DNA of 64,000 nucleotides, taken from IMG/VR virus record IMGVR_UViG_3300029288_000136; one strand, written 5' to 3'. This document shows positions 2,745-61,094 of the stretch, piece by piece. The notes beneath the pieces were generated by a model that made no database searches, was not told the DNA's origin, and saw only the letters and a program-made list of their open reading frames with translations. Source of the stretch: a virus. Taxonomy: Duplodnaviria; Heunggongvirae; Uroviricota; Caudoviricetes. The translations under genes were made by a program, and so were the position numbers. The first letter of the stretch is position 1. The number at the start of each line of letters is the position of its first letter.

Positions 2745-2763
2745 ATAAGAAGAGAGGAATAGA

Positions 2764-4476: not shown

Positions 4477-4477
4477 C

Positions 4478-4585
4478 TTATTGCAGTAATATACAATAAT
4501 ACTTCAATAATACTGCAGTAATATATAATAACACCGCAGTATTATTCAATACTACTGCAGTATTATTCAATAAGTATAGTAGTAT
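4478..4585. repeat. four tandem 22-30 bp repeats with CTGCAG/GCAGTA cores
   Basis: TGCAGTAATATAyAATAA occurs twice, followed by GCAGTATTATTCAATA twice, in the AT-rich spacer upstream of the protease gene. Confidence 0.6.
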
Positions 4586-4646
4586 ATATAGATGTTTGAC
4601 TATTAAATAATAAATAAAATAATCAAATAAGATCAACACAAACAAA

Positions 4647-5957: not shown

Positions 5958-5968
5958 ATACAGAGTAA

Positions 5969-6583
5969 ATGGACAAAGAAGACATAGGAGAAGAACCGGA
6001 AGAGCAAGCACCAGAGATCCAACAAGAAGAATATAATGTGAGGAAACCAGGGAGAAAGAAAGGATCAACCAATAAAGGAGTAAGGAAAGTATTATGGGAC
6101 AATCTTCCAATGAATATACAACTGGAGATATGGAAGATGAAAACAGACGGGGCAAGCATAGCAAAGATCTGTAAATACGTCCACGACCAATACCCAAAGT
6201 ATACTGCAAGCGAGAAATCAGCAACTAAATTCTTCAACTACCGGAAAGAGATACTATCAACAGAAGTAGTAAACTCCAAGACCTACCAAGACTCAATAGT
6301 TGAAACCTTCTCAGAGATGTGCAAAGACATGAACGTAGTGAGTAAACTGCTCGTGGAAAGAGCGAAAGAAGAAGCGATAGGGGGTAAAACAGAGGATCTA
6401 ACTGATGCTGCAGGAGAATTTCTGAACTTCTTCAAAGCACACGGAGACCTCTTAGAGAAGACTGGAAGACCAGATAGCAATCTGAAACCAGTGAATACAG
6501 TACAAGAATTGAAGGACACAGTGAGTGGAATAAAGATAAAGAAGATAAACCAGGAAGTAAAAGAAGAAGAGCCGAGCATTTGA
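5969..6583 (+). CDS. charged protein with HTH-like segment (regulator or small-terminase-like, uncertain)
   Basis: 204 aa. The segment KGVRKVLWDNLPMNIQLEIWKMKTDGASIAKICKYV is HTH-like, and the termini are acidic. Confidence 0.3.
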   Translation: MDKEDIGEEPEEQAPEIQQEEYNVRKPGRKKGSTNKGVRKVLWDNLPMNIQLEIWKMKTDGASIAKICKYVHDQYPKYTASEKSATKFFNYRKEILSTEVVNSKTYQDSIVETFSEMCKDMNVVSKLLVERAKEEAIGGKTEDLTDAAGEFLNFFKAHGDLLEKTGRPDSNLKPVNTVQELKDTVSGIKIKKINQEVKEEEPSI

Positions 6584-6649
6584 TCATTTAATCAATCAAG
6601 CCAATGCAAACAAAGTAAGTAGAACTCTTACTACTTATTAATATCCTAA

Positions 6650-6922
6650 TCACTTCAATTGACCAACATTACCAGAAGGACTTTTACCAACTTCCTTACA
6701 TATCTGTCTTGGAGTCTTATGCAATGATTCCTCAAAGTCCAACGTATCTCCTAAACACTTGAATCTATAATTCATCATGCGTTTACAGTAGACACATCTT
6801 ATTGGAGAATCACTTAGAGGAATACTATATGAGTCTCCGCATTTTGGACACACTGCTTCCTTCAAATAATATTTTCCTCCTCTTATCCCTATCATATCAC
6901 TTACTTTCCTCATATGAATCAC
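6650..6922 (-). CDS. zinc-ribbon protein
   Basis: Carries CPKC...CVYC pairs. First gene of the minus-strand block. Confidence 0.4.
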   Translation of the reverse strand: MIHMRKVSDMIGIRGGKYYLKEAVCPKCGDSYSIPLSDSPIRCVYCKRMMNYRFKCLGDTLDFEESLHKTPRQICKEVGKSPSGNVGQLK

Positions 6923-7191
6923 TTCCTAGAGGTGAATCCTTCCTCCTCGGTATACTTAAGATCCTTATAGGTGTTTTGTTTGATTGGTGGTTCCTTAGTC
7001 ATATTATATCCTGTAATACAGAAAAACCAACCTAAAGCTACAAATACTATGACATGTAATATATAATCTCTTGGAACGTATGAGACAAGTGTTGCAGCCC
7101 CAATCATAGTAGACACTAAGAATGTTATTAGAACAGTAGTGAGGAATACTGAGATTACTCCATTTATTATTGCTTTATAAAATCGCTTCAT
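6919..7191 (-). CDS. small membrane protein
   Basis: Two hydrophobic helices. 4-nt overlaps with both neighbours. Confidence 0.4.
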   Translation of the reverse strand: MKRFYKAIINGVISVFLTTVLITFLVSTMIGAATLVSYVPRDYILHVIVFVALGWFFCITGYNMTKEPPIKQNTYKDLKYTEEEGFTSRK

Positions 7192-7445
7192 TTTGACAAC
7201 TCCATTACCTCATTAGTTTCTTTGTTTATGATGTCCTCATCATCTAATAACAAGATTAAGGATATTCTTGTTGGATTTTTCCATAACTCCCTTAACCAAT
7301 CCCTTTGTTTTAGAGCTGCTTCAAGAGTTGGAAACCAGGATGAATTCAATCTGCCATCAAGAGATATCCATTGAACTCCAAAGTTAAGATTTCCTCTCTC
7401 CTCTTTTATTTTTAATGTATGTTCGGTTACTGTTTTTGAATTCAC
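7188..7445 (-). CDS. AP2-like DNA-binding domain protein, paralogue 1
   Basis: GNLNFGVQWISLDGRLNSSWFPTLEAALKQRDWLRELW resembles the AP2/HNH-associated domain. It is a clear paralogue of 8009..8224. Confidence 0.35.
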   Translation of the reverse strand: MNSKTVTEHTLKIKEERGNLNFGVQWISLDGRLNSSWFPTLEAALKQRDWLRELWKNPTRISLILLLDDEDIINKETNEVMELSK

Positions 7446-7714
7446 TGTAATACCTTCAGGAATAATTTGTAAAATTCTTCAGGAGATGGAGCTAAAGTGA
7501 TATATTCAACAAATCCATCAACCAATAAGGTAGGGATAGTTGCCACATTCTTCATCAATGCCTCAGTATAGTCTTCAGATGTTACGATCATCTTCAACTC
7601 ATAATCCTTCCCCTCAACCGCTCCAGTTCTTTTAGCCGATTCCAACAACTCTTTCTCGAATATCTTGCAATTGGGGCAGTTCTCAGATTTATATAATACT
7701 ATTCTTGGGTTCAT
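7442..7714 (-). CDS. thioredoxin/glutaredoxin-fold redox protein
   Basis: CPNC active-site motif near the N-terminus and a downstream IPTLLVDG motif. Confidence 0.5.
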   Translation of the reverse strand: MNPRIVLYKSENCPNCKIFEKELLESAKRTGAVEGKDYELKMIVTSEDYTEALMKNVATIPTLLVDGFVEYITLAPSPEEFYKLFLKVLQ

Positions 7715-8012
7715 TTTCTTTTACAATAAGTGAATCATCTATTGTTATATCCGAGGCAATAATTGAATTATTCCCAATCCTTTCAACTGATACTCCCGAG
7801 ATATCAACTGGTAGATTCAATTTAAGGTCTTTTACAGTTGTTAAATTTACTGTAGCTGAGATCAGTGGTCTCTTGAACATGGAATCATCTATGTTGAATT
7901 CCAGAGCAATAGCAATCTCATCTCTTTTCAAATTGCTTGGAATGCTCTTTCCAGTTGTCAATATACGTGCATGTCCCTTACTATCAAGGATCATATACTT
8001 CTTAATTTTCAT
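7689..8012 (-). CDS. hypothetical protein
   Basis: 107-aa ORF in the operon chain. No motif recognised. Confidence 0.35.
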   Translation of the reverse strand: MKIKKYMILDSKGHARILTTGKSIPSNLKRDEIAIALEFNIDDSMFKRPLISATVNLTTVKDLKLNLPVDISGVSVERIGNNSIIASDITIDDSLIVKENEPKNSII

Positions 8013-23205: not shown

Positions 23206-23412
23206 CTAATGGTTTATTGCTTGGGTTAGGTCTTGTTCTGAAATTATATTTCCTTTATCATCGCTAACTACAAGAAAAACCGCTTTTATCGTTTTAAGAT
23301 ACTCACAGGTTAAAGTTCCTTCTACACAGAACTTATACCAAAACTCAGCCTCAGTTGCCTTCAACATTGATATTTTCCCATCTTTATAATTAATTCTCAG
23401 TTTTACAGTCAT
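23206..23412 (-). CDS. cassette protein (68 aa)
   Basis: Start codon lies inside the conserved junction, and its stop overlaps the next junction. Confidence 0.4.
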   Translation of the reverse strand: MTVKLRINYKDGKISMLKATEAEFWYKFCVEGTLTCEYLKTIKAVFLVVSDDKGNIISEQDLTQAINH

Positions 23413-23415
23413 CGT

Positions 23416-23784
23416 TCATTCCCTCCTTTTAATCTCTGTCTCTTTCGATTTTTCTTCTATTGGCTTATAATCCGGGCAATCCGACATCTCGCCATAACAA
23501 TAGAAAAAGCATTGTTCTTGTATTTCACTACTTGGATTATGACACCAATCGCCATGTAAAAACTTGCAGTCGGGACAGATACATGCAAGAGTGCCCTTTT
23601 CAATAACTCCCACCCCCTTCAAACGAGCAATCTCCTGGTCCTTCTCTTTGTGGTCTGGAAAGTAATGGTCCTCAACGCAGGACATACAACAAAAAACATA
23701 CTCGTCCCCATCCGCTTCTATCACTCTGATTGCATCAAAAGAGCTAAACACGCCCTTGCAAGCCTCACAACCAAGTTTAGTCAT
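23416..23784 (-). CDS. Cys-rich cassette protein (122 aa), C-terminus ...KRRE
   Basis: Multiple CxxC pairs. The C-terminal KRRE-stop is encoded by the conserved junction. Confidence 0.4.
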   Translation of the reverse strand: MTKLGCEACKGVFSSFDAIRVIEADGDEYVFCCMSCVEDHYFPDHKEKDQEIARLKGVGVIEKGTLACICPDCKFLHGDWCHNPSSEIQEQCFFYCYGEMSDCPDYKPIEEKSKETEIKRRE

Positions 23785-23787
23785 CGT

Positions 23788-23994
23788 TCATTCCCTCCTT
23801 TTTTCTCTGTCTCTTTCGATTATTTTTTTTGTTTTGTCAAGGAAAACCTCGAGAGCCGCATCCTTGACCTTCTGGTACTCAGCCAATGCCGGAGCCTCGA
23901 CCTTCTGGTACTCAGCCCAGAAAACTAATACCTCTTTCTCGTTCCTCTTGATCGCATTAAGATTTTCCTTAGAAAAAACCATATTATAGCTCAT
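23788..23994 (-). CDS. cassette protein (68 aa), C-terminus ...KRRE
   Basis: Junction at both ends. It shares a 17-nt block with the previous gene but reads it in a different frame. Confidence 0.4.
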   Translation of the reverse strand: MSYNMVFSKENLNAIKRNEKEVLVFWAEYQKVEAPALAEYQKVKDAALEVFLDKTKKIIERDREKRRE

Positions 23995-23997
23995 CGT

Positions 23998-24174
23998 TCA
24001 TTCCCTCCTTTTAACTGTTTCTAATGATTTATTCTCGTAGCCCTGCGCACGTTTCAGAATGGCTTTATATTCCTTGTCTGTATACTGCCGTCCGCATCTG
24101 GGGCATTCTCCGATCCGGGGGTCGAAGTCGCTTTCTTCAAGCAAAACCTTACACCTTGTGCAATATGCGTCCAT
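23998..24174 (-). CDS. 58-aa zinc-ribbon cassette protein, C-terminus ...KRRE
   Basis: MDAYCTRCKVLLEESDFDPRIGECPRCGRQYTDKEYKAILKRAQGYENKSLETVKRRE. The stop TGA lies inside the junction. Confidence 0.35.
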   Translation of the reverse strand: MDAYCTRCKVLLEESDFDPRIGECPRCGRQYTDKEYKAILKRAQGYENKSLETVKRRE

Positions 24175-24500
24175 TATCCTTTATGACCCTCTGTCTCTTT
24201 CGATTCTTTCCATTTTAACCCGGCACAGCTAATAATGTCCTTTGCCTGAATCAAGTCATGATATAGCCGTGCGTTCTCGGCTTTCAGTTCCGCTATTTCT
24301 CCCTTCATCCTTGCAGCTTCAATATAACATGAATCCGCTTTAAGGCTCATAATCTCCTGGTCCTTCTTCTTTAGTTCATTTAGAAGGCGTAAACAATCTT
24401 TATGGTCCAGTTCTAGTCCTCGGTGATTTAGCGTTCCCTCATAAAGTAATTGCTTCCACTCATCCCAATTCTGAGAATTCAAAACTTGTGTTTTGTCCAT
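24174..24500 (-). CDS. coiled-coil cassette protein (108 aa)
   Basis: Ends ...SKETEGHKG. Its TAA overlaps the next ATG (TAATG). Confidence 0.4.
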   Translation of the reverse strand: MDKTQVLNSQNWDEWKQLLYEGTLNHRGLELDHKDCLRLLNELKKKDQEIMSLKADSCYIEAARMKGEIAELKAENARLYHDLIQAKDIISCAGLKWKESKETEGHKG

Positions 24501-24501
24501 G

Positions 24502-24708
24502 TTACTGTTTACCCTCTGTCTCTTTGGGATGGTATTTTCCTGAAACTTCTATATCCTCTCCTGATAGTCCGTTTGAATCTATCTCAATCTTATAGCGGGC
24601 AATTCTTCCAGAGTATAGTTCCATCGTTCCTGAAATTTCGGTCGCCCCATCTCGTAGCATTTCCATCACCGCTTCCCCAATCTTGCCCGTCGTGCTAATT
24701 GCGCTCAT
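24502..24708 (-). CDS. first cassette protein (68 aa)
   Basis: Ends ...KETEGKQ. Start preceded by CAAGGAGGGAATGAACG-ATG. Confidence 0.4.
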   Translation of the reverse strand: MSAISTTGKIGEAVMEMLRDGATEISGTMELYSGRIARYKIEIDSNGLSGEDIEVSGKYHPKETEGKQ

Positions 24709-33568: not shown

Positions 33569-33902
33569 ATGGCTTCTAGTGACAAAGTTGCTATATTTAT
33601 TGATTCGGGCTATTTTAACAAAGCCTTAGAGGAATTTGCCGAAGAGGTAAATGGTAGGAGGAAGTTACCTAGGATAGATTTTGGTAAAATCGGATCTGTC
33701 TTAGCAGAAATAGTAAACGCTGATTTATTTAGGGTATATTTTTATGATTGCCGCCCATTTCAAAGCAGCCCGCCAACACCCGAAGAAAGCACTAAATTTG
33801 CTTTAAATGACCGATTTCTCAAAGCACTAACTCGTATTCCTCGTTTTGTTGTTCGTGAAGGAAGACTTAATCGTTATACCGTAGTATGCAAGAAATGTAA
33901 TA
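33569..33902 (+). pseudogene. NYN/LabA-like nuclease domain gene, N-terminal fragment, interrupted by island
   Basis: MASSDKVAIFIDSGYF... is the NYN N-terminal hallmark. Sequence character changes to GC-rich after ...VVCKKCN. The C-terminal half resumes at 38787. Confidence 0.55.
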
Positions 33903-34129
33903 GGGCAGGGTGCCGGTTGTCTTCGGGTATAATATTTACTGCATGCTGGGCCGTAAGACCGGGAAGTTGCTTGCCCATAATGGGTTGTATGTTAAGAGTT
34001 TAAGCGTCGGATGGGCCGAATTAAAGAGGGATTTCTCCGGGTACGCAGTCAACGGGACTGCCTTGAATGCATCGCTGGATACGGGTAAGTCTTCCGTACA
34101 ATAGAAGTTTTTGTGGGTATTCGTCCTCA

Positions 34130-34640
34130 GGCAGTTATAGTCGAGGGCAAAAGTTGTCCACAGACATGCCCTTAAGGGCAACTAGCCTTTTTTTAAAAAT
34201 CAGATTACGTGCCCTCGAATAGATTCGCGGCCGATAGCAGTCTAAATGCATTTAAGGCATTTGCCTTTTTGCACAATTTATGGCCACGATTATGTCCAAA
34301 TCAGCGTTTTTAAGCTCTTTTGTATCATTATCCGGTTTGCCTTAGGCTGTGGGTTCTTTCCGCCTTGCAGCAGCCGAGGTCATATTATAGTGCAGGAGAT
34401 AACTTTCCTGCGCCCGTCGAGCGCATGCCTGTCAGGCGGAAAATTTGTGCCTAGAGGCACATGCCCCTTGAGGGCAAAGTCCCTTTATCTCCCTGCACTT
34501 GTTTCAAGGGCCAAAATCTTAGGGGTATTCTGGTCCTCGACTATAGTTCTTCAGGTCTTTTGCCTGCCTATTTTACAACAGTTTTCCGGCATTTAGGGAT
34601 TGAATAATCGTGGAGGGATAACTTTTCCCTCCTTAAGGCA
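34130..34640. other. GC-rich non-coding region with multiple perfect palindromes, bounded by 11-bp inverted repeat
   Basis: TATAGTCGAGG at 34137 and CCTCGACTATA at 34533. Internal palindromes GCCCTTAAGGGC, GTGCCTAGAGGCAC and GAGGGATAACTTTTCCCTC. No credible ORF. Confidence 0.45.
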
Positions 34641-34930
34641 TTCCCTGCGAGCATCCCGAGTTTTTCGTGAAAGACCTTTGTTCTCCCGCGCTGGTTTCCA
34701 GTAGGCGGACTTGCCTGGAAGGCGTTCCTCTTTAAAGGCGCGAAAATTTAATCCTTGACTAAGTGTTTTCCCTGTCTGCTCGGGGTCTGCTTCGAACACT
34801 TTTTTTCTATGCCGATGAGCCGCATATTTTCCAGGGAACCTACAGAAAAAAATTTGTTAGACGCAACATATCTTTTATTATAAATATATTCCAGTAAACA
34901 TGATATAAGGACATAGTCTTATATAGTAAC

Positions 34931-35377
34931 GTGACATTACTTTATTTTGCCTATGGCGCGAATATGAACCACAAGCACATGAAAGACGCGTGCTCTCAGA
35001 GCAGGTTCTTGAAGAGGGCTTTTCTGGAGGATCATAAGATAATATACGACGGGTACTCGGATTACATGAGAAGAAGAGCAAGGGCCAATGTCATCAGCTC
35101 TGAGGGCAGTGTCGTGTGGGGCGGCCTGTATGAGATAAGCGAGACGGACCTTGTATCGCTGGACGTATCGGAGTACGCGCCTAACTCATTCGACCGGAAG
35201 ACAACCGTCGTCAAAGACGAGGACGGGAAGACATATGAGGTCATCGTCTACCGCAGGGAAAAAAGGGAGTTGTGCGCGCCTTCTACGGAGTACAGGCAGA
35301 CCATAATACAGGGAGCAAAAGACTGCAACCTCCCCCAGGGATATATAAGGGGGATAAGTTATAGAGTAAGCGGATGA
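34931..35377 (+). CDS. gamma-glutamyl cyclotransferase / AIG2-like protein
   Basis: N-terminal LLYFAYGANMN hallmark (YFAYGSNM of the GGCT/AIG2 family). Confidence 0.55.
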   Translation: MTLLYFAYGANMNHKHMKDACSQSRFLKRAFLEDHKIIYDGYSDYMRRRARANVISSEGSVVWGGLYEISETDLVSLDVSEYAPNSFDRKTTVVKDEDGKTYEVIVYRREKRELCAPSTEYRQTIIQGAKDCNLPQGYIRGISYRVSG

Positions 35378-35391
35378 TTATCAAAATCTGA

Positions 35392-35829
35392 TTACATGTA
35401 TTTAGACTGGCTTTTAGTCTCCCGGGCAGTTGGCTCTTCCTCTGCAGGCACCGGTTCTTCTACCTGGACATCATCGGCCGGTTCGTCTACAGGGTCGTCT
35501 TCCAGGTATTCATCCAGCCGGTAGAGCCAGCAGCATTTGCCGCATTCAAGTTCCAGTTCTCCCGCGCAGTTGCCGTTTGTCCCTTCCTGCATCACTATTT
35601 CCCCGTCTCTCACATATGCTGTTATCTTGTTCTGGCATTCGGGGTTCTCACAGGTGAAAGACACTTTTTCCGCCTCGCACACAAGTTCCGGTTTATAGAC
35701 CATGTTCTCATCCTCCGATAGATCTTCGTTTAGTATCGCTCTTTCTGCGCTCGTGTAGCTTCCATATCTCAAGACAAGATATAGAAGGTACGCAACGCCA
35801 ACCAGGAAAAATAAGCTTCCCAAGTCCAT
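35392..35829 (-). CDS. membrane-anchored Cys-rich acidic protein
   Basis: N-terminal TM helix, CxxC pairs, acidic tail. Downstream of the flotillin gene. Confidence 0.4.
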   Translation of the reverse strand: MDLGSLFFLVGVAYLLYLVLRYGSYTSAERAILNEDLSEDENMVYKPELVCEAEKVSFTCENPECQNKITAYVRDGEIVMQEGTNGNCAGELELECGKCCWLYRLDEYLEDDPVDEPADDVQVEEPVPAEEEPTARETKSQSKYM

Positions 35830-35833
35830 TAAA

Positions 35834-37210
35834 TCATTCCTTCTTCTTTGTTTCGTGCTTTATCTCGTGCCTGCGCGTTATGGGCTCTACTCCGACAGCT
35901 TCGAATATCTTCGGCAGAGCCGCTGTTCCCTGCATCACGGTATTCAGGATGGATCCGCCAAGTCCCATGTCTGACGTATCCCCTGTCTGGACTATCGTTA
36001 TCTTGTCTCCGATGTTCTTCAGGGGCTCTGCTATTCTCTCGGCTATCAAAGGAAGCGTCTCTATCTTCATTATCTCAAGGCCGCTCTGGTTCAATTCCTT
36101 GTATGCTTCCGCCTTCTTCTGGACTCCTTCCGCTTCGGCTAGAAGCTTTTGTTTCTGTCCCTCCGCTTCGGCCAGTAATTTTGCCTTTATTGCTTCCGCT
36201 TCCCCGATCCCTTCCAGCTTCTTCTTCTCGGACTCTCCCGCCGCAATAGCGATCGTCTTGACTTTCTCGGCCTCTCCTTCAAGCTGCTGTATTTCCTTGT
36301 TTCGTTCGGATATCTCTACTTGTTTCTGCTTCTGTATTAGTTCGATCTTCATCTGCTCTTCTTTCAGTTTCTGTGTTTGTATGGCAGTCTCTATATCCTT
36401 TGCCTTGTCGGCCATGGCCTGCTGCGTGAATGTCTCCTGGTTGTATAGCGCCATCTTTATCTGTTTTTCTTTTTCGTATTCTGCTATCTTTGTCTGCGCT
36501 ATGTTCTCCTGCTCGCTTGCTTCCTGGTTCGCCTTGGCGGTCGCCTTCCGGGACTCGCTCTTCGCGTTGGCTTCGGCTATCTCCGCTGCTTTTATCTTTT
36601 CGGCAAGCTCCTTTGCGTAGAGGGACTCTATGTACCCTCTGCCGGTCTCTTTCTTTGTTGACGATGAATCGCTGATGTCCTTTATCGTGAAGGATACTAT
36701 CGAGAGGCCCATCTTCTCCAGGTCGTCTTTTGCGTTCTCAAGGACCCTTTTGTTGAAGCTTTCCCGGTCCTGTATCAATTCCTCGACTGTCATGTTGGCG
36801 CATATCGCCCTTATGTGGCCCTCCATTGTCTCTTCTATCTTCTGCATTATCCTTTCGGTCTCAAAGCCCAGGAATGATTTTGATACGTTGGCGTATCCTT
36901 CTTCGGTGTCCTGCAACTGTAATTGTGCGACTGCTTCCACGTCGACGGGAACGATAAGCTGAGTCTGCACGTTTTCCTTTACTATTGTGACGGTCATAAG
37001 CTGTTTTGTTATGGACCACGCTTCTTCCAGGACAGGGAATATGAGCGTTGCTCCTCCCGACACGAATCTTGTTCCTTTCCTTCCGGAGATCACCATAAGC
37101 TTTGACGGGGGTACTTTGATATAGTTCCTGCTCATAACATACGCTCCCCCCATGACCGCTATTGCTCCCCCGCCGACTATTATCGGCAGCACGAATCCGT
37201 CGATGTTCAT
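35834..37210 (-). CDS. SPFH/band-7 flotillin-like protein
   Basis: N-terminal TM helix plus SPFH-like domain, then a long EA-rich coiled coil (AEAEG repeats). 4-nt overlap with the upstream NfeD gene. Confidence 0.65.
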   Translation of the reverse strand: MNIDGFVLPIIVGGGAIAVMGGAYVMSRNYIKVPPSKLMVISGRKGTRFVSGGATLIFPVLEEAWSITKQLMTVTIVKENVQTQLIVPVDVEAVAQLQLQDTEEGYANVSKSFLGFETERIMQKIEETMEGHIRAICANMTVEELIQDRESFNKRVLENAKDDLEKMGLSIVSFTIKDISDSSSTKKETGRGYIESLYAKELAEKIKAAEIAEANAKSESRKATAKANQEASEQENIAQTKIAEYEKEKQIKMALYNQETFTQQAMADKAKDIETAIQTQKLKEEQMKIELIQKQKQVEISERNKEIQQLEGEAEKVKTIAIAAGESEKKKLEGIGEAEAIKAKLLAEAEGQKQKLLAEAEGVQKKAEAYKELNQSGLEIMKIETLPLIAERIAEPLKNIGDKITIVQTGDTSDMGLGGSILNTVMQGTAALPKIFEAVGVEPITRRHEIKHETKKKE

Positions 37211-37788
37211 TTTTCAGCCTCTCTTGATGCTTTTTTTACTTTCAACATGTCGCCGCATAGTCCGGCGACTATTACATTCGTTCCCTTGGGCAGGCTTTCG
37301 TCCGAGACCGCCAGTAAAGACTTATGGCTCCCGTCTACGAAAAGAACTTCCCCCTTGTCGCCCGCGCCCTTTATCTCCACTGTCACTACGCCCTCTTTTC
37401 CTATGAAATCCCTCAGCTTGCGTATAGAGCTTGGCGAATTGGAGAACACCTTGGACATTAGATACGTTGATGAGACGGTTATCGCTAAAGAGATAAAAAG
37501 CGACGCAGGAACCAGGACAAAAGGACTCATTTCAGGATACGCGAGCAGGAGATATACCCCGGCCCCTCCGAAAGTCGTGCAGAACGCGCCCATCGCGAAT
37601 GTGCCAAAGCCGTGGAAAGACACTCCGTCGAATGCATCCCCCAGGAGGGATATGCCATCCAACGCGTTGCCCACGCCTTCCAATACCCCTTCCAGGGCGT
37701 CGCCTAATATGTCGGCAAAGAAGCTGACAACTGTGATCAATAGCCCCATCAAGAATATTATTCCGAAAACTAGTAGAATATCTATCAT
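37207..37788 (-). CDS. NfeD-like membrane protein
   Basis: Multi-TM N-terminus plus a C-terminal OB-like segment (GKEGVVTVEIKGAGDKGEVLFVDGSHKSLLAVSDESLPKGTNVIV). Classic operon partner of SPFH proteins. Confidence 0.5.
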   Translation of the reverse strand: MIDILLVFGIIFLMGLLITVVSFFADILGDALEGVLEGVGNALDGISLLGDAFDGVSFHGFGTFAMGAFCTTFGGAGVYLLLAYPEMSPFVLVPASLFISLAITVSSTYLMSKVFSNSPSSIRKLRDFIGKEGVVTVEIKGAGDKGEVLFVDGSHKSLLAVSDESLPKGTNVIVAGLCGDMLKVKKASREAEK

Positions 37789-37945
37789 TTTTATTGAATA
37801 ATATTTAGATTATGTTATATTTATATAAATATTCTGTATAAAACTTTGATTCTTTCCTGAATTTGTAGATTTGTGGGAAGTGAGCGAATGTAGTGCCTAA
37901 CTTTCCGGACCAAAAAAAATATTTAAATAATCAGAAAACACATAC

Positions 37946-38458
37946 ATGTATGTGATGAAAGCCAGCAAACATCGCATGCTTTCTTTTATGATGGTCGCCG
38001 CGTCTACCGCTGCCGGCGCGAACTCCGTAATGGGCCCTCTGACAGGCATTTGGGGAGTGGCAATGATATTCTTATTCCTCCCGGTATGGCTTCTTGAGGC
38101 CGTAATCATTTACTTCGCAGCAAGGAAGATATGTTCCTACAGTATAAGCCTCAAGCGCGCATTTATCACGTCTTTTGCAGCCAACACCGCCTCGACAATA
38201 GGCGGCCTTATGGCAATGCAAATTTGCTACTTTATTACCTTCCTACTGTTCCATAACTATACCCTGAGCATATTTTACGAGATCGTCCCCGTCTTTGCCC
38301 TGGGTTTTGTGATAACGGTCATCATAGAAACGGTCGTGGTGCATATCTCAGTCAAGGATAAAGGCAGAGGCTGCAAGCCTTTTTATATTTCCATGCTGAT
38401 GAATCTGGCGTCATATGCCCTGCTTGCAGCGCTTGCAGTCATCAGATACAGTCGTTGA
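37946..38458 (+). CDS. integral membrane protein
   Basis: Four or five hydrophobic helices. GC-richer codon usage like the island. Confidence 0.4.
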   Translation: MYVMKASKHRMLSFMMVAASTAAGANSVMGPLTGIWGVAMIFLFLPVWLLEAVIIYFAARKICSYSISLKRAFITSFAANTASTIGGLMAMQICYFITFLLFHNYTLSIFYEIVPVFALGFVITVIIETVVVHISVKDKGRGCKPFYISMLMNLASYALLAALAVIRYSR

Positions 38459-38783
38459 CGTTCTTAAGCCACATTAGCAGCGTCGACTGAACCGTTCCGG
38501 ATGCCTCGGCGCTTATCCTCTCCGCGTCGTATCCGAACGTTATTAGCAGGTTCTCGAGAGCCCGGACCAATAGTTCGTAGTACTTGTCCGGATCGTATTC
38601 CCCCCGTATCTGCTTCGGCGTGTAGCGCCGCTCGGGCTTCTTCGCGCAGGCATCTGTTATCACGTACTCGACCGATTCCCCCGGCCGGGTCTTCAGACCG
38701 TAGCGTTCCAGCTTTTCCATCACGACCTTTTGCGCCGCCGCGCTCTTGTATTCATTCCGCTCCCTTGTCACGCTCTTGAACAT
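38442..38783 (-). pseudogene. C-terminal (thumb) fragment of an archaeal-type family-B DNA polymerase
   Basis: ...GESVEYVITD...EYDPDKYYELLVRALENLLITFGYDAERI...QSTLLMWLKNVN aligns with the conserved PolB C-terminus (G..I.Y.V...YDP.K..YDAEYYIENQVLPAV.RIL..FGY...Q..L..WL). It has no N-terminal 600+ aa and ends at the island junction. Confidence 0.65.
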
Positions 38784-38786
38784 ACA

Positions 38787-39062
38787 ATTGACTACAAGCA
38801 GAAAGGCGTAGATATACTACTATCTATGGATTTAGTAAAGTTGGTTTCTAAGGAAGAAATAAACAAAGCAGTACTAATAACTGGTGACAGTGACTTTGTG
38901 CCTGCGGTTCGAATGGCAAAGGATGATACGATCCAAATTTATTTGATACATGGTACTAGAATCCATAATGGAAAAACTCTTCCACTAGCTCATGATGAAC
39001 TTTATTCGTTATGTGACGAACGCATACCTATAACAAAGGAGCTACTTAAAAGGCTGACCTAA
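38787..39062 (+). pseudogene. NYN/LabA-like domain, C-terminal fragment
   Basis: IDYKQKGVDILLSMDLVKL...AVLITGDSDFVPAVRMA matches the NYN C-terminal core (KGVD...SGDSDF.P). No own start codon, since the tracked ORF start lies antisense to the PolB fragment. Confidence 0.55.
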
Positions 39063-53999: not shown

Positions 54000-54780
54000 G
54001 GCTATGTAAGCACAAGCATCCAAATATCTCTGAGCAAGTCGAGAGAATTCCATTGTTTAGTTCACCTTAAAACAGTTGCTTGGCGGCATAGTGATTGAAC
54101 ACACATGCCTTAACCAGCCCGTGCAGTCTTCCAATTAAGGCTTGACTGCACGCTGTGGTATTTAGAAGCAGCACCATGTTTACTCCTTTCACCATATTGG
54201 CTTATGGATGCCAACAGCTTTCCCGTTGAATGCAGAACAGCTGAATAAGTCAGCCCGATTCAAAGGTTATACTATGTGGCAGTGCTGCCCGTATGCCTGC
54301 ATTATTTAAATACTTGCCCGCTCTGCCTCCGACAGCCGACAGTCTAAACTGTAGTAGTCATGCGTCCTCCCCGTTTTTGCTATTATCTCCAATCTTCCAA
54401 GGACCGAGTAGTTACTGACTACATCACCCGGTTAGTTCCTTGACCGTCAAGGAGAGCAATTCGTAAGAGCCGACGCTCAAGAGTATAGAGCCTCAAGTTT
54501 GTTTTTTGCGCTTTGCGACACGAGAGCCAGGCTAACAGCTCCCGTTTTTTTGCTCAATCTCATACAACCTCTGAGATTGTCGCACCGCTCCCGCTATATG
54601 GGAGATTCGGAGTCACTCTTATAGGATACAGGATAACAGGTCGCTGCCCGCATTTCCTCCTATGATAACCATTAGACGATTAGGATATAAGAGCGATTAC
54701 GACCAATTTCCCAAACCAAAACCAGCACCCTGCGAATTCACAGAGCAAAAAGATTAGAAGGGGTAGTTACACTATTTTTT
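54000..54780. other. GC-richer, hairpin-rich non-coding region upstream of terL (candidate ncRNA or packaging/ori region)
   Basis: No ATG-initiated ORF of 60 aa or more in any frame, although base composition is more balanced than the flanks. Contains an 8-bp stem-loop CAATCTCA-n9-TGAGATTG at 54555-54579, among others. Confidence 0.35.
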
Positions 54781-54785
54781 CTCAG

Positions 54786-54836
54786 TCTGACCTTTGACTT
54801 TTTCTTATTCTGATCTTTGATTATTCTGACCTTTGG
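54786..54836. repeat. three iteron-like 12-bp repeats TCTGA(C/T)CTTTG(A/G)
   Basis: Copies at 54786, 54809 and 54825. Confidence 0.45.
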
Positions 54837-55083: not shown

Positions 55084-55211
55084 CAAACATAGACCTACAA
55101 ATCAAAACAAGCCTCACAACCTCAAACCACATCATTGATCCAATAACATCAAAGACCCCACACCATCTCCAAATAGATAAACCCAAATACAATTACCACC
55201 CACAATGCTAA
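55077..55211 (+). CDS. upstream mini-ORF 2, paralogue of the terL N-terminus (44 aa)
   Basis: MLTNIDLQIKTSLTTSNHIIDPITSKTPHHLQIDKPKYNYHPQC. Its first 11 residues are nearly identical to the TerL start, and its stop overlaps the terL ATG. Confidence 0.35.
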   Translation: MLTNIDLQIKTSLTTSNHIIDPITSKTPHHLQIDKPKYNYHPQC

Positions 55212-56749
55212 CCAATATCGACTTACAGATCAAGACCGGACTAACAACCTCAGACTTCATAATAAAAGGAGCCACAGACTTCAAATACTGGGCCGAAACC
55301 CTATACGACTACACAATCAAACCATACCACATCGAATGGGCCAACAACCTAACACAACAAACACGCTCCTCAACCATCGCAGCAAGAGGACTAGGCAAAT
55401 CACTCATACTAGGAACCCTAATGCCCATCTGGCTAAGCTTCTACGACTACACACCACAGACAACAAACCTAAAAGGAATAGTAATAGCAGCCCAAAACCT
55501 AAGCCAAAGCACTAAACTAATGATGAACATCCGAAACCACATCAACAAAACAGAACTAACACAACTACTCATACCAAAAACAGGAGACTACACCTGGACC
55601 AAAAAAGAAATAAACACCACAACCGACTGGAAAATAAACGTACTACCATACAGCGACAACGCAAGAGGACCACACGTCCCATACCTCCTAATGGAAGAAG
55701 CAGGTCTATTCACCGACCTAGAAATATACACAGACGTATTCCTACCAATGATCCAAAGAGCCAACGGCAACGCAATGTTATTAGGGACCCCAAAAACAGC
55801 ATACGACCTGCTAGCAAGAAGCCAAATACCCGGAAGCGGATACCAGATAAGCAAATACCCCCTAATCAAAAACGGAGAATGCATCCTACCAGAAATATTC
55901 CCCCCAGAACGAATACAACAAATACGAAAAGACATCGGAGAACTAAGCTTCGCAAGAGAATACCTACTCGAAATAGTAGGAGAAGGACGAGCAATAAAAA
56001 CACAACACATAATAGACAGCCTAGACCCAACAGAAACCTTCACCACACTAGGAACCGAAACAGGAGAATACTACATAGGAGCAGACCTAGCACTATCCCC
56101 CACAGGAGACTACACAGTACTAACAGTCATAGAACGCTACAATGGACGCTACCACATCCGCAAAATAGAAGAATACCGCGGCATGAGCTTCGACAACCAA
56201 ATAAACACCATAGCCACCCTATACAAACAATACAACCCCGTCACCCTACTAATAGACGAAAGCAACTTCGGAGGAATAGTAACCCAAAAACTACAAACAC
56301 AATACAACATACCAGCCCAAAGCATCAAATTCCTCCCAACCACCCGCAACACCATGCTCATAAGACTAATAAACACCTTCACATCAAACAAAATAACCAT
56401 ACCACGAAACCCCAACTGCCCCACCACCCTCACACTAACAGACCACCTACTAGACCAAATAAGCAGCCTACACAGCGACAAAACACGCAGCGGCCAAGAC
56501 ACCTACAAAGCATCAACAAAACACGATGATTCTTTAATGTCCCTAGCACTAGCCCTACACGCAGCAGGAGACACAGACAACTACCAAGAAACAGCCATAC
56601 TAACAGCCAAACCACCAACAAACCAAACACAACAAAACAAGATAATACAAGACAACTACTATGAAACAATACAAAAAATGAGACAAAAACCAATAAAAGA
56701 AACCAAAGAATACGGATCAGCCTTCAACAAATGGCTACCACACAACTAA
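55205..56749 (+). CDS. terL: terminase large subunit
   Basis: Deviant Walker A AARGLGKS, Walker B LLMEEAG. C-terminal nuclease-domain acidic motifs are IGADLALSP, LLIDESNFGG and KHDDSLMSLALALH. 514 aa, immediately upstream of the portal candidate. Confidence 0.8.
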   Translation: MLTNIDLQIKTGLTTSDFIIKGATDFKYWAETLYDYTIKPYHIEWANNLTQQTRSSTIAARGLGKSLILGTLMPIWLSFYDYTPQTTNLKGIVIAAQNLSQSTKLMMNIRNHINKTELTQLLIPKTGDYTWTKKEINTTTDWKINVLPYSDNARGPHVPYLLMEEAGLFTDLEIYTDVFLPMIQRANGNAMLLGTPKTAYDLLARSQIPGSGYQISKYPLIKNGECILPEIFPPERIQQIRKDIGELSFAREYLLEIVGEGRAIKTQHIIDSLDPTETFTTLGTETGEYYIGADLALSPTGDYTVLTVIERYNGRYHIRKIEEYRGMSFDNQINTIATLYKQYNPVTLLIDESNFGGIVTQKLQTQYNIPAQSIKFLPTTRNTMLIRLINTFTSNKITIPRNPNCPTTLTLTDHLLDQISSLHSDKTRSGQDTYKASTKHDDSLMSLALALHAAGDTDNYQETAILTAKPPTNQTQQNKIIQDNYYETIQKMRQKPIKETKEYGSAFNKWLPHN

Positions 56750-57474
56750 AACACCAAACTAATCAAGCCACACAATCAACTGACACAATCAACTGACACA
56801 ATCAACTGACACAACTAACAGAGACAACTAACAGAGACAAACAAACCAAAAAACCAACCAAGACAACACAAGTAAACAAAGACAACCAAACACACAACAT
56901 ACCAATATGAATAAGCAAAGACAACTAACACAACTAACAGAAACAACACAACCAAACCACGCAACTAAGCAGACAAAGATAACTAAACCAAACAACAAAC
57001 TAACACAACCAAAACAAGACAACTAAAACAAGACAACTAAACCAAGACAATTAGATCATACAATAAAACCATACAACCAAACCAAGACAGATAAACTAAA
57101 AAAACTAACTAACTCAACTGTTAAGAATCAAAACAACTAACAGAGATAACATAACCAAATCACACAATTAATCAAAATAACTAAACAACACAATTAGATC
57201 ATACAACTAAACCATACAACTAACTAACACAACAAACCAAATAAAACAAATCAAAAACAACCAAACACAAACCAATCAGAAAAATTTAATATAAATACTA
57301 CAATACATATACAACTAATATATACCATACAAAACTAATTAATAAAAAACCAAATAAACAAGCACTAAAACAAACAGATATCAAAACAAATAAATACAAA
57401 AACAAATAAAAACCAAATTAATAAAAAACAAGACTAAAAAACAACAATAACATACAATCAATAAATATTACAAG
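56750..57474. repeat. A/C-rich low-complexity spacer with tandem repeats
   Basis: Plus strand is almost entirely A and C. CACAATCAACTGA x3 (56771-56809), CAACTAACAGAGA x2, ACAAGACAACTAAA x2, and ACAATTAGATCATACAA at both 57051 and 57191. Confidence 0.6.
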
Positions 57475-58893
57475 ATGACAACACCAAATCAAAAAACAAA
57501 AACCCAAAGAAGATCACAACCAATATCAACACACACACAAAACATACAAAACACCGGATTCCAAGGAATAATACCCACACTGCAAAAATTCATGTACGGA
57601 GAACAAAAAACAGACAACACCCCCGAACCGGAAATAGGAAACAAAGGATACAGCACCGGACTAACACTAAACAGGGCAAGCAAAGCAGACCTGGAAGCAC
57701 TATACATAAGCGACCCAGTAATATTCAACGGAATAAACACCTACTACAAAACAATCCTCTCAAACCCCCCAACCCTGACAAACGGATCGGAAAAAGACCA
57801 AAAAAAACTAGACCAATTCAGCAAACAAATAAAACTACAAAGAAGCATAATACCAAGCATAACCCAACACAGCCTCATATACGGAACCGCGTGGAATGAA
57901 AAAATCTACAACAAAGCCCCCAGAGGAAACATCCTACACAAAATACTCGGAATACCCACAAGAGACCCCAAACTAATGGACTTCCTAAGACACCAAAACA
58001 CCAACTACATAAGATTCAACGAAGTAGGAGAACCGGAAGGATACTGCCAATACATAGCTGACGGAATACACTACGAAGGAACCGACACCATAATAAACGG
58101 AACAAACAGCCTAAAAGCCATACCCTTCACCCCAAACAAAATAATGTGGACCAACTACATAGCAGTAGGAGACACCTATGAAGGAATAGGCCTGGTCGAA
58201 CCAATACTAAACAGCTCACTAGACAAAAACAACGCCCAAAAAGGATTCAGCGCATACATCTACCGACTAGGACACGGACTACTAGGCATCAAAGCAGGAA
58301 ACGAAAGATTCATACCCTCAACCGACATGATACACAAAGCCATACAGATCTTCAGCAACATAAACACCGAAACAGTAGTCTCCTACCCCTACTACCTACA
58401 ACCCGAAATGATCGAACCCAAAAGAGGAATAGAACGACTAAGAGAACAAGTAGACTACTTCATAGACCAACAAATAGCCGGAATCGGTTTGCCAGCATGC
58501 TTAGTAACAGGCCAAGGAACTTCTATGAACCGCAGCATCCTGGACAAAATGATGATGCTATTCTACCAAAGCCTCACCATGATCCAAAACAACATATCTA
58601 TAAGCATAGAAGACAACCTATCCCAAGAACTAATGGACATATACGGACTAGACAACCCCCCAAGACTAGAATGGCCCGACATAAACATAGAAAGCATGGA
58701 CAGCAAAGCAAACAGGCTAAGCACATACGCAAAAGCAGGCCTGCTAGGAGCCACCCCAATGCTGCAGACATACATACGACACTCAGAACACCTACCCCAA
58801 GAAGGAGACAACACGCCCAACACGCCAGACACCCAATCAAACGAAGACCAGGAGAACCACAAATCAAAGCTGGATTCAATCCTCGACTTCTAA
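57475..58893 (+). CDS. portal protein candidate
   Basis: 472-aa ORF directly after terL in head-module order. Size and position only, no motif checked. Confidence 0.5.
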   Translation: MTTPNQKTKTQRRSQPISTHTQNIQNTGFQGIIPTLQKFMYGEQKTDNTPEPEIGNKGYSTGLTLNRASKADLEALYISDPVIFNGINTYYKTILSNPPTLTNGSEKDQKKLDQFSKQIKLQRSIIPSITQHSLIYGTAWNEKIYNKAPRGNILHKILGIPTRDPKLMDFLRHQNTNYIRFNEVGEPEGYCQYIADGIHYEGTDTIINGTNSLKAIPFTPNKIMWTNYIAVGDTYEGIGLVEPILNSSLDKNNAQKGFSAYIYRLGHGLLGIKAGNERFIPSTDMIHKAIQIFSNINTETVVSYPYYLQPEMIEPKRGIERLREQVDYFIDQQIAGIGLPACLVTGQGTSMNRSILDKMMMLFYQSLTMIQNNISISIEDNLSQELMDIYGLDNPPRLEWPDINIESMDSKANRLSTYAKAGLLGATPMLQTYIRHSEHLPQEGDNTPNTPDTQSNEDQENHKSKLDSILDF

Positions 58894-58907
58894 ACCACAT
58901 AAAAAAG

Positions 58908-61094
58908 ATGCCAAACCCCCAAACTAACACCAAACCACCACATGAAAACAATGAGAAAATAGCGGAGTTGGTTCACTCCAACTCCGAAATAGGCTCGTCA
59001 GGATCCTCACCAACATCTTCCCCCGATTCCTCCGTCTCGGAAGCATCCTCGACTACGGAACCTCGCTCAGACTCGGCTTCATATCCTTCCTCGTTACAGG
59101 GATTGGTTCACGCCAATCCCACGTTACCTACGGAGTCGGTCTCTAAGACCTCCTCGACGTTACAATTACAAGATGAATCATCTGTGAATGTTACATCAGA
59201 CGTTACATTACGAGAACAAATAGCCAATCAATCCCATACTCAATGGTCTAAATGGATGGAATATCTATTCAATGAATCAAATCAATTAGAAGATGGAACA
59301 GTAAGCATCCCACCAACTAAAGTAAGCAGATGGAAGAGACAAATAGTTACAGATTACAAAGACTTAACTATAGAAGAGCAGAATAGTGACTTAAAAGAAG
59401 CAGATATCTACATACAAATCTTTAATTCATACTTACATAATTCCAAAGAGACCTTAGATAATGCAGAGTTAGTTCAATCCAACTCTGAAATGAATGAATC
59501 AAGTGAAAAACCACTGAATAAAGAAGAAAAGAACGCTCCGACCAACTGCGAACTAATGAAGCCATTCACCCCAATGCAGATGACAAACAAACAAATGAAC
59601 ATAGAAGACATCAATTACTACTTCAACGACAAATACTCAGAGAAATACATGCTATTCAACCAAACAAACAAAGGAACACACATATTCCTACATAAAGGAA
59701 GCAGATGGAACGGTTCAACAGTAAAGATATACAACGACAACAAAGAAGAGATAACTGACAGATACCCAGACATAGTATACCAAGCACCTGAACTGACAGA
59801 TTACTCCATAATAGTGGAAGGAATAATAGAAAACAATGGAACACTAGACTCTGGAACTCTAAATGGAACACCAAAAGGAACAGTAAACTCTGGAACACAG
59901 AATGAAACACTAAATGAAACACTAAATGGAACACTACAACTATACGACATACTATACTACGACCAACCGATGAACAGATCACAGCTGATAGAAAGACTAA
60001 GAGTATTATTCATGAATATAAAAGACACTGAAAACATAAAGAAGAACAGACCAATACCTGAGAAAAACATCAAACACATGATCAAACTAGCTAAAAAGAT
60101 GGGAACAGGCATAATAAGACACCTAGACTCAGCCTACCATATCAATGAACATGGAAACGACAAAGGATTCCAACTCTCAGACACTTCTGCAGCCTCCTCC
60201 ACTAACACTGATACAATATATAATAATATACATACAATAGGCAACAACACTTCTACAATACTAAAAGAGATATCAGACAAATTACCACAAACATTCATAT
60301 CAGAATTAAGCAAAGCAAAAGACAACTGGATACCATTCACACTATCAAAGCATTACAGAGGACACAAAGAAGGAAATAATATAATAATGAATAGCGTACA
60401 CCAGGATCTAAGATTCAACATCCCCAATTCAACAAACGTACAAGCAATAACGATACTAACACCAGGAAACAATGAAAATCAGGACCTACTAACAATAGGG
60501 GAAGCAGCTAGAAATGGAAAGATAAGATTCCTGGTAAAAGAACCAGAACCAATACAAAGCACAAAACCAACATACTACCAAGAGAATAACCCAGGAGCCA
60601 CAACAGTACCTGGATTCAGCATAGTAGTAGCAGAAGGCCAATACACGCTCCTGGAATCAACAGATACCAAGCTACATATCGAATTAAACTGCATAGAGTC
60701 CTCATCCAGTGAAGGAGAGCATACAGTAAGAAAAAACAAGGAAGTCATAGATAAAGCGCTGGAAGCAGGGATCAAAGTAGACGAAATAGACTGGAGTACT
60801 TTAAAAGACATATCAGGGGTGTGGAGCCTAAGCGAAGCGCATATGACAGACACTACAATACTACTTATGAGGCTTCTAAACAGGGGAACAGCAAGATTAC
60901 TTGAAAAAGTAGACAAAACATGGATGGAACAAGTCAAAAAAGGACACATACACAAGACCGGAGTAAACAAGGAAAAACTATACAAAATAGCCCTTATGAG
61001 CGAAGAAGGATACTACAGACCAGAGATAGCCAAAGAGATAGGAACAAACAAGGACACAGTATACAGATGGCAGAAAGCATTAGGATACTACTAA
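58908..61094 (+). CDS. large head-module protein with Ser-rich linker and C-terminal HTH
   Basis: Start set at the first ATG after the portal stop, because the tracked ORF start at 58497 lies in an alternative frame of portal. GC-rich Ser/Thr/Pro linker (SSGSSPTSSPDSSVSEASSTTEP). C-terminal EIAKEIGTNKDTVYRWQKALGY is HTH-like. Confidence 0.45.
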   Translation: MPNPQTNTKPPHENNEKIAELVHSNSEIGSSGSSPTSSPDSSVSEASSTTEPRSDSASYPSSLQGLVHANPTLPTESVSKTSSTLQLQDESSVNVTSDVTLREQIANQSHTQWSKWMEYLFNESNQLEDGTVSIPPTKVSRWKRQIVTDYKDLTIEEQNSDLKEADIYIQIFNSYLHNSKETLDNAELVQSNSEMNESSEKPLNKEEKNAPTNCELMKPFTPMQMTNKQMNIEDINYYFNDKYSEKYMLFNQTNKGTHIFLHKGSRWNGSTVKIYNDNKEEITDRYPDIVYQAPELTDYSIIVEGIIENNGTLDSGTLNGTPKGTVNSGTQNETLNETLNGTLQLYDILYYDQPMNRSQLIERLRVLFMNIKDTENIKKNRPIPEKNIKHMIKLAKKMGTGIIRHLDSAYHINEHGNDKGFQLSDTSAASSTNTDTIYNNIHTIGNNTSTILKEISDKLPQTFISELSKAKDNWIPFTLSKHYRGHKEGNNIIMNSVHQDLRFNIPNSTNVQAITILTPGNNENQDLLTIGEAARNGKIRFLVKEPEPIQSTKPTYYQENNPGATTVPGFSIVVAEGQYTLLESTDTKLHIELNCIESSSSEGEHTVRKNKEVIDKALEAGIKVDEIDWSTLKDISGVWSLSEAHMTDTTILLMRLLNRGTARLLEKVDKTWMEQVKKGHIHKTGVNKEKLYKIALMSEEGYYRPEIAKEIGTNKDTVYRWQKALGYY

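Follow-up and report, generated by a model that had tools for sequence, protein, structure and literature searches.

How does a tailed virus come to carry the end of an archaeal DNA polymerase gene without the rest of it? The question is raised by a window of 64,000 nucleotides (the whole stretch of DNA analysed here) from the Caudoviricetes record IMGVR_UViG_3300029288_000136 of IMG/VR, in which an open reading frame (ORF) of 113 codons resembles the C-terminus of family-B DNA polymerases (PolB). The comparisons reported below argue that this ORF is the 3' remnant of a host polB2 gene, lying at the cut end of a chromosome segment captured from an Altiarchaeia-like donor by illegitimate recombination, a reading to which we assign a probability of roughly 0.78. 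The argument turns on three features (aa, amino acids):

38442..38783, minus strand: the 113-aa ORF, residues 3-113 of which represent the 3' remnant of a PolB2-type polymerase gene (distal thumb and C-terminal tail)
38466..38489, minus strand: within this ORF, a motif resembling a PCNA-interacting peptide (PIP-like), Q99-S-T-L-L-M-W-L106, of the QxxLxxWL form seen in Thermococcus PolB (QVGLGAWL)
33903..38777, no strand assigned: inserted archaeal chromosomal block of ~4.87 kb, delimited by G+C content (45-54%), synteny and junction alignments

In a phmmer search of PDB chains, the ORF (MFKSVTRERNEYKS...TVQSTLLMWLKNVNDCI) matched 33 family-B polymerase chains, the best being 7b06_A, where ORF residues 2-107 align with chain residues 663-770 of 773, including the terminal QxxLxxWLK (E 1.7e-6). 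Residues 6-105 also match positions 616-715 of 717 in the NCBIfam profile NF004418 ('type B DNA-directed DNA polymerase'; E 1.6e-8), and 215 matches at E<=1e-3 came from phmmer run exhaustively against 1.84 billion representatives; in all full-length matches (715-833 aa) the ORF aligns at the extreme C-terminus. The sequence-only reading of this locus had matched the 113 residues to the extreme C-terminus of archaeal PolB and had made that claim depend on significant similarity in database searches, which was found. Pfam DNA_pol_B did not match the ORF, and a word-index protein search with it returned only the ORF itself. The residue-by-residue alignment with the thumb C-terminus (663-770), QxxLxxWLK included, holds for the Thermococcales PolB structures (PolB3; PDB 7b06, 1tgo and 3a2f); however, identity to these enzymes is low, and the NCBIfam and database matches lie nearer to PolB2-type models and sequences. 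Against the full-length polymerases encoded by Logan contig L009 (724 aa) and ENA contig L013 (728 aa), tblastn identity is 74.8% and 76.7%, respectively, over 103 aa at residues 620-723 (73-77% overall at the protein level). The ORF thus contains the region homologous to the C-terminal part of the PolB thumb, and it has no 3'-5' exonuclease domain, no palm or fingers, and none of the motifs A (DxxSLYPS), B (KxxxNSxYG) and C (DTDS) that mark a functional family-B enzyme. Since only the distal thumb and the C-terminal tail are encoded, the ORF product would be unable to polymerise.

In-frame stops within a few codons upstream of the ATG end the frame there, and tblastn with seven diverse PolBs revealed no further part of a PolB, either in the window or in the next 9.9 kb after it, the contig ends of ~3.6 kb and ~7.3 kb lying outside this search. 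The statements that nothing exists N-terminal to the ORF and that the window contains no intact polymerase are therefore borne out; the recommended search for the missing N-terminal part in the rest of the genome now covers those 9.9 kb and turned up none. Judged from the alignments, the 113-aa ORF is the cut-off tail of an archaeal polB2 gene. A second PolB-like tblastn match, at 20416-20721 of L002, is weak and was rejected as spurious, being antisense to a gene and containing a stop.

The assignment to PolB2 comes from the full-length relatives. In an alignment of 11 sequences (A2), these read HGIVDS at motif C where replicative enzymes read YGDTDS, and this difference is nearly invariant; it is shared by all of the closest full-length polymerases, which are 73-74% identical to the stub over its length. 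Loss of the first Asp of DxD is among the described features of PolB2, as are an operon shared with iRadA and PPB2, an 'MGRT' N-terminal arm on PPB2 and an enrichment of SRAP genes nearby (PMC4104785, PMC11791011), and archaeal PolB2, the Dpo2-type translesion polymerase, is encoded in iRadA-PPB2-PolB2 operons (PMC4104785, PMC11791011, PMC8764526). On L009 the polymerase gene is preceded by a 146-aa gene and then an ORF starting MGRTVKT; on L014, a contig of an Altiarchaeota metagenome-assembled genome (MAG), genes of 151 and 97 aa occupy the same places, with a SRAP gene nearby and ordinary cellular genes as neighbours. The 146-aa protein on L009 is an iRadA candidate by position, size and similarity by eye and has no Pfam or PDB match; the PPB2 candidate has no Pfam match. 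Taken together with the alignments, the donor gene was almost certainly a PolB2, an enzyme of damage tolerance as opposed to a replicative or viral polymerase. The stub shares with archaeal PolB2 its identity to the C-terminus of the HGIVDS polymerases, of which the L009 representative stands in an order fitting iRadA, PPB2, PolB2, and a C-terminal PIP-like motif present in some PolB2 proteins. It differs in keeping only the last ~111 of ~725 residues, without the catalytic, exonuclease and iRadA/PPB2-binding parts or the partner genes, and in lying in a viral genome. A casposon or protein-primed viral PolB was also considered as the source and appears to be excluded by the neighbours, which are cellular homologues in conserved order, and by the PolB2 type of the best matches.

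Two explanations had been left side by side from the sequence: the fragment might be a clue to an archaeal donor or a relic of a viral polB since lost. A polymerase of family B is encoded by many of the large tailed viruses, and none was found in this window, as would be expected if a deletion had left only this piece of the virus's own replicative gene. However, the nearest full-length relatives are PolB2-type polymerases that have lost the first Asp of DxD and lie on cellular-type contigs, the one on L009 within an iRadA-like, PPB2, PolB2 order; the genes flanking the stub follow the order of archaeal contigs, the G+C content of the block (~48%) resembles that of the donor's relatives and not that of the virus, and the other end of the island cuts an unrelated rhodanese gene. 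The viral origin is thus unsupported, and we consider it highly improbable, whereas the archaeal donor is supported by the identity of the stub to the L009 and L013 polymerases and by the shared, conserved gene order.

The stub forms one end of a block that stands out in base composition, with ~48% G+C (45-54% between ~33900 and ~38800) against ~32-38% just outside and a step at each edge; the window as a whole has 31-45%, ~37% overall. The junctions fall within 33903-33913 on the left and 38777-38784 on the right. On the right side, similarity to polymerase genes at the nucleotide level starts exactly at 38777, in the AAG codon of K3, and upstream of the K3 equivalent the L009 and L013 proteins continue as ...DDLVI(K/R)KSVTRE. 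The adjoining bases 38778-38783 (ATG-TTC on the minus strand) read E-H in the frame of a viral NYN-domain gene described below and align with the D-F that precedes 'TIDIKQKGVD' in its homologues. The ATG of the stub had been placed at the very edge of the inserted segment; this is right to within ~6 bases, but the PolB homology begins at K3, and the start codon probably lies just outside the insert, with M1-F2 read from NYN-gene DNA in the antisense direction and the ATG from the complement of a viral His codon. At the left end, the break lies within a rhodanese gene, the remnant of which is 73% identical to residues 107-158 of the L013 rhodanese (E 4e-24), with nucleotide homology from 33913; the full L013 protein matches Pfam Rhodanese. 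Besides the stub, the block contains the following features:

33910..34104, plus strand: 5'-truncated rhodanese remnant, last ~64 residues, at the left cut end, recognised by tblastn to the L013 rhodanese
34311..34821, minus strand: decayed pseudogene, in pieces in three frames, of a gene that encodes 182-188 aa in the relatives and comes after GGACT there
34931..35377, plus strand: intact gamma-glutamylcyclotransferase-like gene (GGACT/AIG2), identified by Pfam and by comparison with the relatives
35392..35829, minus strand: intact gene for a 145-aa protein without a family match, downstream of flotillin as in L009
35834..37210, minus strand: intact flotillin gene (SPFH/Band 7 and Flot domains), with 94-95% protein identity to that of L009 and a ratio of non-synonymous to synonymous divergence (dN/dS) of 0.033
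37207..37788, minus strand: intact gene for an NfeD-like membrane protein, the usual flotillin operon partner, identified by Pfam
37946..38458, plus strand: 170-aa ORF with long hydrophobic stretches (by eye), at the place of the relatives' 592-631 aa secreted protein

The 170-aa ORF overlaps the stub by 17 bases at its 3' end; Pfam gave no match for the 113-aa stub, the rhodanese remnant or the 170-aa ORF. The pseudogene has lost ~300 bases of its 5' part relative to L009 and, together with the rhodanese remnant, explains the scarcity of ORFs in the left kilobase. The possibility that 33900-34900 holds a structured RNA, such as a group II intron, was rejected, as Rfam gave nothing at the gathering score and only a chance microRNA match at E<=10; the fold z-score of this interval, -3.55, is not diagnostic. 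The AT-rich spacer that precedes nfeD (37800-37860) has the sequence TTTATATAAATA ~40 bases ahead of the start of nfeD (opposite strand); this sequence resembles an archaeal TATA box, and the captured nfeD operon may thus have kept its own promoter.

The flotillin of the block led to L009 (8,223 bp, G+C content 51%), which carries, in order, the 146-aa gene, the 724-aa PolB, a 592-aa secreted Cys/Thr-rich protein, NfeD, flotillin, a 152-aa protein, GGACT on the opposite strand and the start of a further gene. Its positions 4834-7883 are 80.6% identical at the nucleotide level to window positions 37835-34824, and the 3' end of its polymerase gene (2594-2857) is 73% identical to 38777-38514. A contig from JGI 3300075153 shares this order (PolB, a large secreted protein, NfeD, flotillin, a small protein, GGACT on the opposite strand) and continues with a 188-aa gene. 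The ENA contig L013 has PolB, GGACT, a 631-aa gene, a 182-aa gene and rhodanese, followed by cellular genes including a response regulator. The contig L020 (87.5 kb, G+C content 49%), from a MAG named Candidatus Altiarchaeia by NCBI, carries rhodanese, the 182-aa gene, GGACT and a gene of the 146-aa type, along with cellular genes for ABC transporters, glycosyltransferases and an acyl-CoA ligase-like protein. On both L013 and L020 the rhodanese, 182-aa and GGACT genes stand in the order of the window. The GGACT protein of the window is 90.5% identical to that of L013 and falls in one 90% cluster with a Ca. Altiarchaeia MAG protein, and the nearest named relatives of the L009 polymerase, at 55-56% identity, belong to Candidatus Altiarchaeota MAGs. 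A scan of genome contigs with the flotillin gave only distant bacterial flotillins. By gene order and identity, then, the block derives from the chromosome of an uncultured archaeon belonging to an Altiarchaeia-like lineage; since the available relatives (G+C content 47-51%) are only ~72-82% identical to it in nucleotide sequence, the actual donor is unsampled.

The archaeal locus is itself variable. On L020, where PolB2, the secreted protein, NfeD and flotillin are all missing from the locus, ~445 bp separate an iRadA-like gene from GGACT, and on L013 PolB2 directly adjoins GGACT without NfeD and flotillin; the full set is present on L009 and on the JGI 3300075153 contig.

On either side of the block lie parts of a gene of the virus:

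33570..33902, plus strand: N-terminal part of an NYN-domain gene, 111 codons, MASSDKVAIFIDSGYF...VVCKKCN
38778..39062, plus strand: C-terminal part of the NYN-domain gene, (L)EHTIDYKQKGVD...GDSDFVPA..., also given as (L)EHTIDYKQKGVDILL...GDSDFVPA...

The frame of the N-terminal part runs on through 33 junk codons into the island, to 34003, and the C-terminal part alone covers Pfam NYN profile positions 71-124. Once joined, the two parts are recognised by Pfam as one continuous NYN domain, with residues 6-167 aligned to profile positions 1-124 (E 1.1e-10), and by tblastn they match intact phage NYN genes in one piece, e.g., that of Streptococcus phage Javan85 (E 3e-14). As read from these matches, the high-GC block is an interruption of one viral NYN-domain gene. 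Near the junction, the joined protein is ~15-19 residues shorter than distant homologues, and a small deletion may have accompanied the insertion.

This arrangement bears on whether the island could be an assembly artefact in which archaeal reads were misjoined into a viral contig. The contig comes from a short-read metagenome assembly (as its k141 name indicates), and ENA assemblies of neighbouring accession number contain related archaeal sequences (L022). The flanks, however, are consecutive, co-oriented parts of one NYN gene, colinear with its intact homologues, and a chimera would require two false joins that return to adjacent positions of a single gene. Furthermore, the window and the ENA contig described below are identical across the island yet differ by 60 bases in an A/C-rich repeat region at ~56760-57410, which suggests that at least two assemblies agree. 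Misassembly is accordingly very unlikely in our view.

No terminal inverted or direct repeats and no target duplication were found at 33903-33913 or 38777-38784, no integrase or transposase domain was detected by Pfam among the island ORFs, and the island contains no tRNA. A transposon, insertion sequence or integrative element was considered as the carrier and dropped, given the lack of terminal repeats, target duplication and recombinase. Genes cut at both ends, together with the absence of repeats, recombinase and tRNA, point to illegitimate recombination and not to a mobile element. We propose that ~4.87 kb of host chromosome was joined into a tailed-virus genome of ~85 kb by such non-homologous recombination, which would have destroyed the viral NYN-nuclease gene. 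The donor would be an uncultured archaeon related to the contigs that NCBI assigns to Candidatus Altiarchaeia and, most simply, the host of the virus. The stub would be a bystander, one break having fallen inside polB2 and the other inside the rhodanese gene; any selection acting to keep part of the block would presumably concern the cyclotransferase gene and the intact nfeD-flotillin operon rather than the stub.

Is the stub more than a relic? Its non-synonymous divergence (dN) is 0.181 to L009 and to L013 each, against 0.066 between those two; the derived non-synonymous branch leading to the window is ~0.148 for the stub, compared with ~0.033 for L009 and L013 and ~0.045 for the GGACT gene of the window. 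The rhodanese remnant is also unusually diverged (dN 0.288). These values suggest relaxed constraint on the stub, which is probably a dead remnant. Alternatively, the stub might be expressed as a small protein consisting of the thumb tip and a putative PCNA-binding motif, which the virus would use as a decoy or adaptor directed at the host sliding clamp or at partners of PolB2. All 113 codons are open, with an ATG created at the junction, and the ORF is co-oriented with most viral genes, so read-through from upstream minus-strand genes is possible. The segment Q99-STLLMW-L106 fits the QxxLxxWL of Thermococcus PolB; Q99 is invariant and L102 nearly invariant in A2. Archaeal PolBs bind PCNA through motifs of this type (pattern Qxx[LIM]xx[FYW][FYWL] near the C-terminus), and C-terminal PCNA-binding motifs have been reported for some PolB2 proteins (PMC11791011). 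On the other hand, neither a promoter-like site (by a bacterial consensus only) nor a Shine-Dalgarno-like sequence was seen directly upstream of the stub ATG, non-synonymous divergence is elevated, and decay is plain at the other end of the island and in one internal gene. The AlphaFold2 model of the stub alone has low confidence (pLDDT 57.9), though it was built from a shallow alignment of 11 sequences, and the iRadA-binding loop, located near residue 250 of S. islandicus PolB2 (PMC11791011), belongs to the missing part. Expression as such a decoy or adaptor is unlikely, and the specific proposal that a translated 113-residue peptide occupies the host sliding clamp or disturbs the host PolB2 damage-tolerance complex is similarly unlikely. 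If true, the virus would possess a weapon built from a broken polymerase gene of its host.

The virus itself is represented by a contig of ~85 kb, of which the window is a part (ENA ERZ27247363 k141_3129407, 84,899 bp; the NCBI copy has 84,939 bp). In NCBI it is entered as 'MAG: Candidatus Paceibacterota bacterium' (proteins MFA5132833-37); its gene content shows it to be a tailed-virus genome, and the Paceibacterota binning is probably wrong. The hallmark genes located in the window are:

55205-56749: large terminase
57475-58893: Mu-type portal
84-5957: tail proteins

A head protease (weak match, E 8e-4) and a major head protein complete the tailed-virus set, and the contig also encodes RecU, YopX, a Cas4-like nuclease and a MoxR-VWA pair. 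Several further peculiarities of the viral sequence were observed. Short A/C-rich tandem repeats (periods 13-58) with extreme AT skew fill 56760-57412 between the terminase and portal genes and recur at 54776-54835; the 60-base difference between the window and the ENA assembly falls in the surrounding 52.6-64 kb stretch. Four small minus-strand genes at 23206-24708, which look like a small paralogous family, share a near-identical upstream AAAAGGAGGGAATGAACGATG with a strong Shine-Dalgarno-like motif, whereas only ~20% of other viral genes have any; overall Shine-Dalgarno usage (21 of 103 genes) is uninformative as a clue to the host. Immediately behind the portal gene, 58497-61094 (and likewise L002 6282-8468) encodes a large protein with an ATP-dependent DNA ligase domain and a C-terminal helix-turn-helix, unusual both in position and as a fusion.

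Several observations weigh against the capture of host chromosome and the death of the stub as proposed here. The 111 polymerase codons remain open, without frameshift or stop, and keep the invariant Gln and the PIP-like QxxLxxWL. Synonymous divergence of the stub is saturated, so its dN/dS is not computable, and its window-specific changes at codon positions 1:2:3 (12:11:26) show no clear difference from those of the intact GGACT gene (5:6:14), the bias towards third positions being just modestly weaker in the stub. Neither viral contigs, searched with the joined NYN protein and two neighbouring proteins, nor metagenome contigs provided a close relative of the virus without the insert, and in the absence of such a relative, both the precise junctions and the form of the NYN gene before insertion are inferred only. 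The best matches of the large terminase among isolate phages are to Bacteroides phages, at 24% identity. Apart from the block, no viral gene points to an archaeal host, RecU and YopX domains are present, and the G+C content of the virus, ~37%, is 10-14 points below the 47-51% of the donor's relatives.

The last of these points, along with the Paceibacterota bin to which NCBI assigned the contig, also favour a real capture from a donor that is not the host, e.g., by a bacterial phage that acquired archaeal DNA via a symbiotic or co-infected partner, or as free DNA; RecU and YopX occur most often in bacterial phages. Yet binning of viral contigs by composition or coverage is unreliable, and for a virus to recombine with an unbroken 4.9 kb of chromosome, the simplest requirement is that its genome was inside the donor cell. 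A donor other than the host is a possibility that we take seriously while considering it doubtful, and the host assignment is the weakest link of the reading that we prefer, namely capture from an Altiarchaeia-like host.

Viruses have been proposed for this archaeal lineage: the Altivir viruses are reportedly viruses of Candidatus Altiarchaeum, the same lineage as the present donor. To our knowledge, the described viruses of the Altiarchaeia lineage are few and lack tailed-virus hallmark genes. The present contig has terminase, portal, protease and major head genes, and its link to the host consists of the captured DNA only.

Host-DNA capture is a known process, and the block resembles other host-derived blocks of tailed viruses (morons and auxiliary genes) in its foreign G+C content, the interruption of a viral gene, ends that cut through host genes, the lack of terminal repeats and recombinase, and the mixture of intact and decaying genes. 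It is distinguished by its donor, an uncultured Altiarchaeia-like archaeon, by its cargo of an nfeD-flotillin operon and a cyclotransferase gene, and by truncated genes that remain recognisable at both ends. The locus is thus a new instance of this process, and the polymerase stub an ordinary by-product of it.

Three unrelated contigs (L010, L011 and L012, 43-74 kb; ENA ERZ27256770 and JGI 3300017987/3300017989) with many small ORFs encode a 766-aa PolB, above the NCBIfam pol2 superfamily cut-off and with exonuclease-domain matches, as well as an NfeD-flotillin pair 43% and 35% identical to that of the window. If these contigs are viruses, the NfeD-flotillin pair would have been acquired more than once, a hint that viruses may benefit from this membrane-scaffold module. 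In the present virus, the locus offers a clean case of captured host DNA, with both cut ends still legible and an nfeD-flotillin operon carried along. The stub and its neighbours act as a provenance tag, showing that a virus contig filed under Paceibacterota carries 4.9 kb of Altiarchaeia-like chromosome, and they provide a testable host hypothesis for that lineage.

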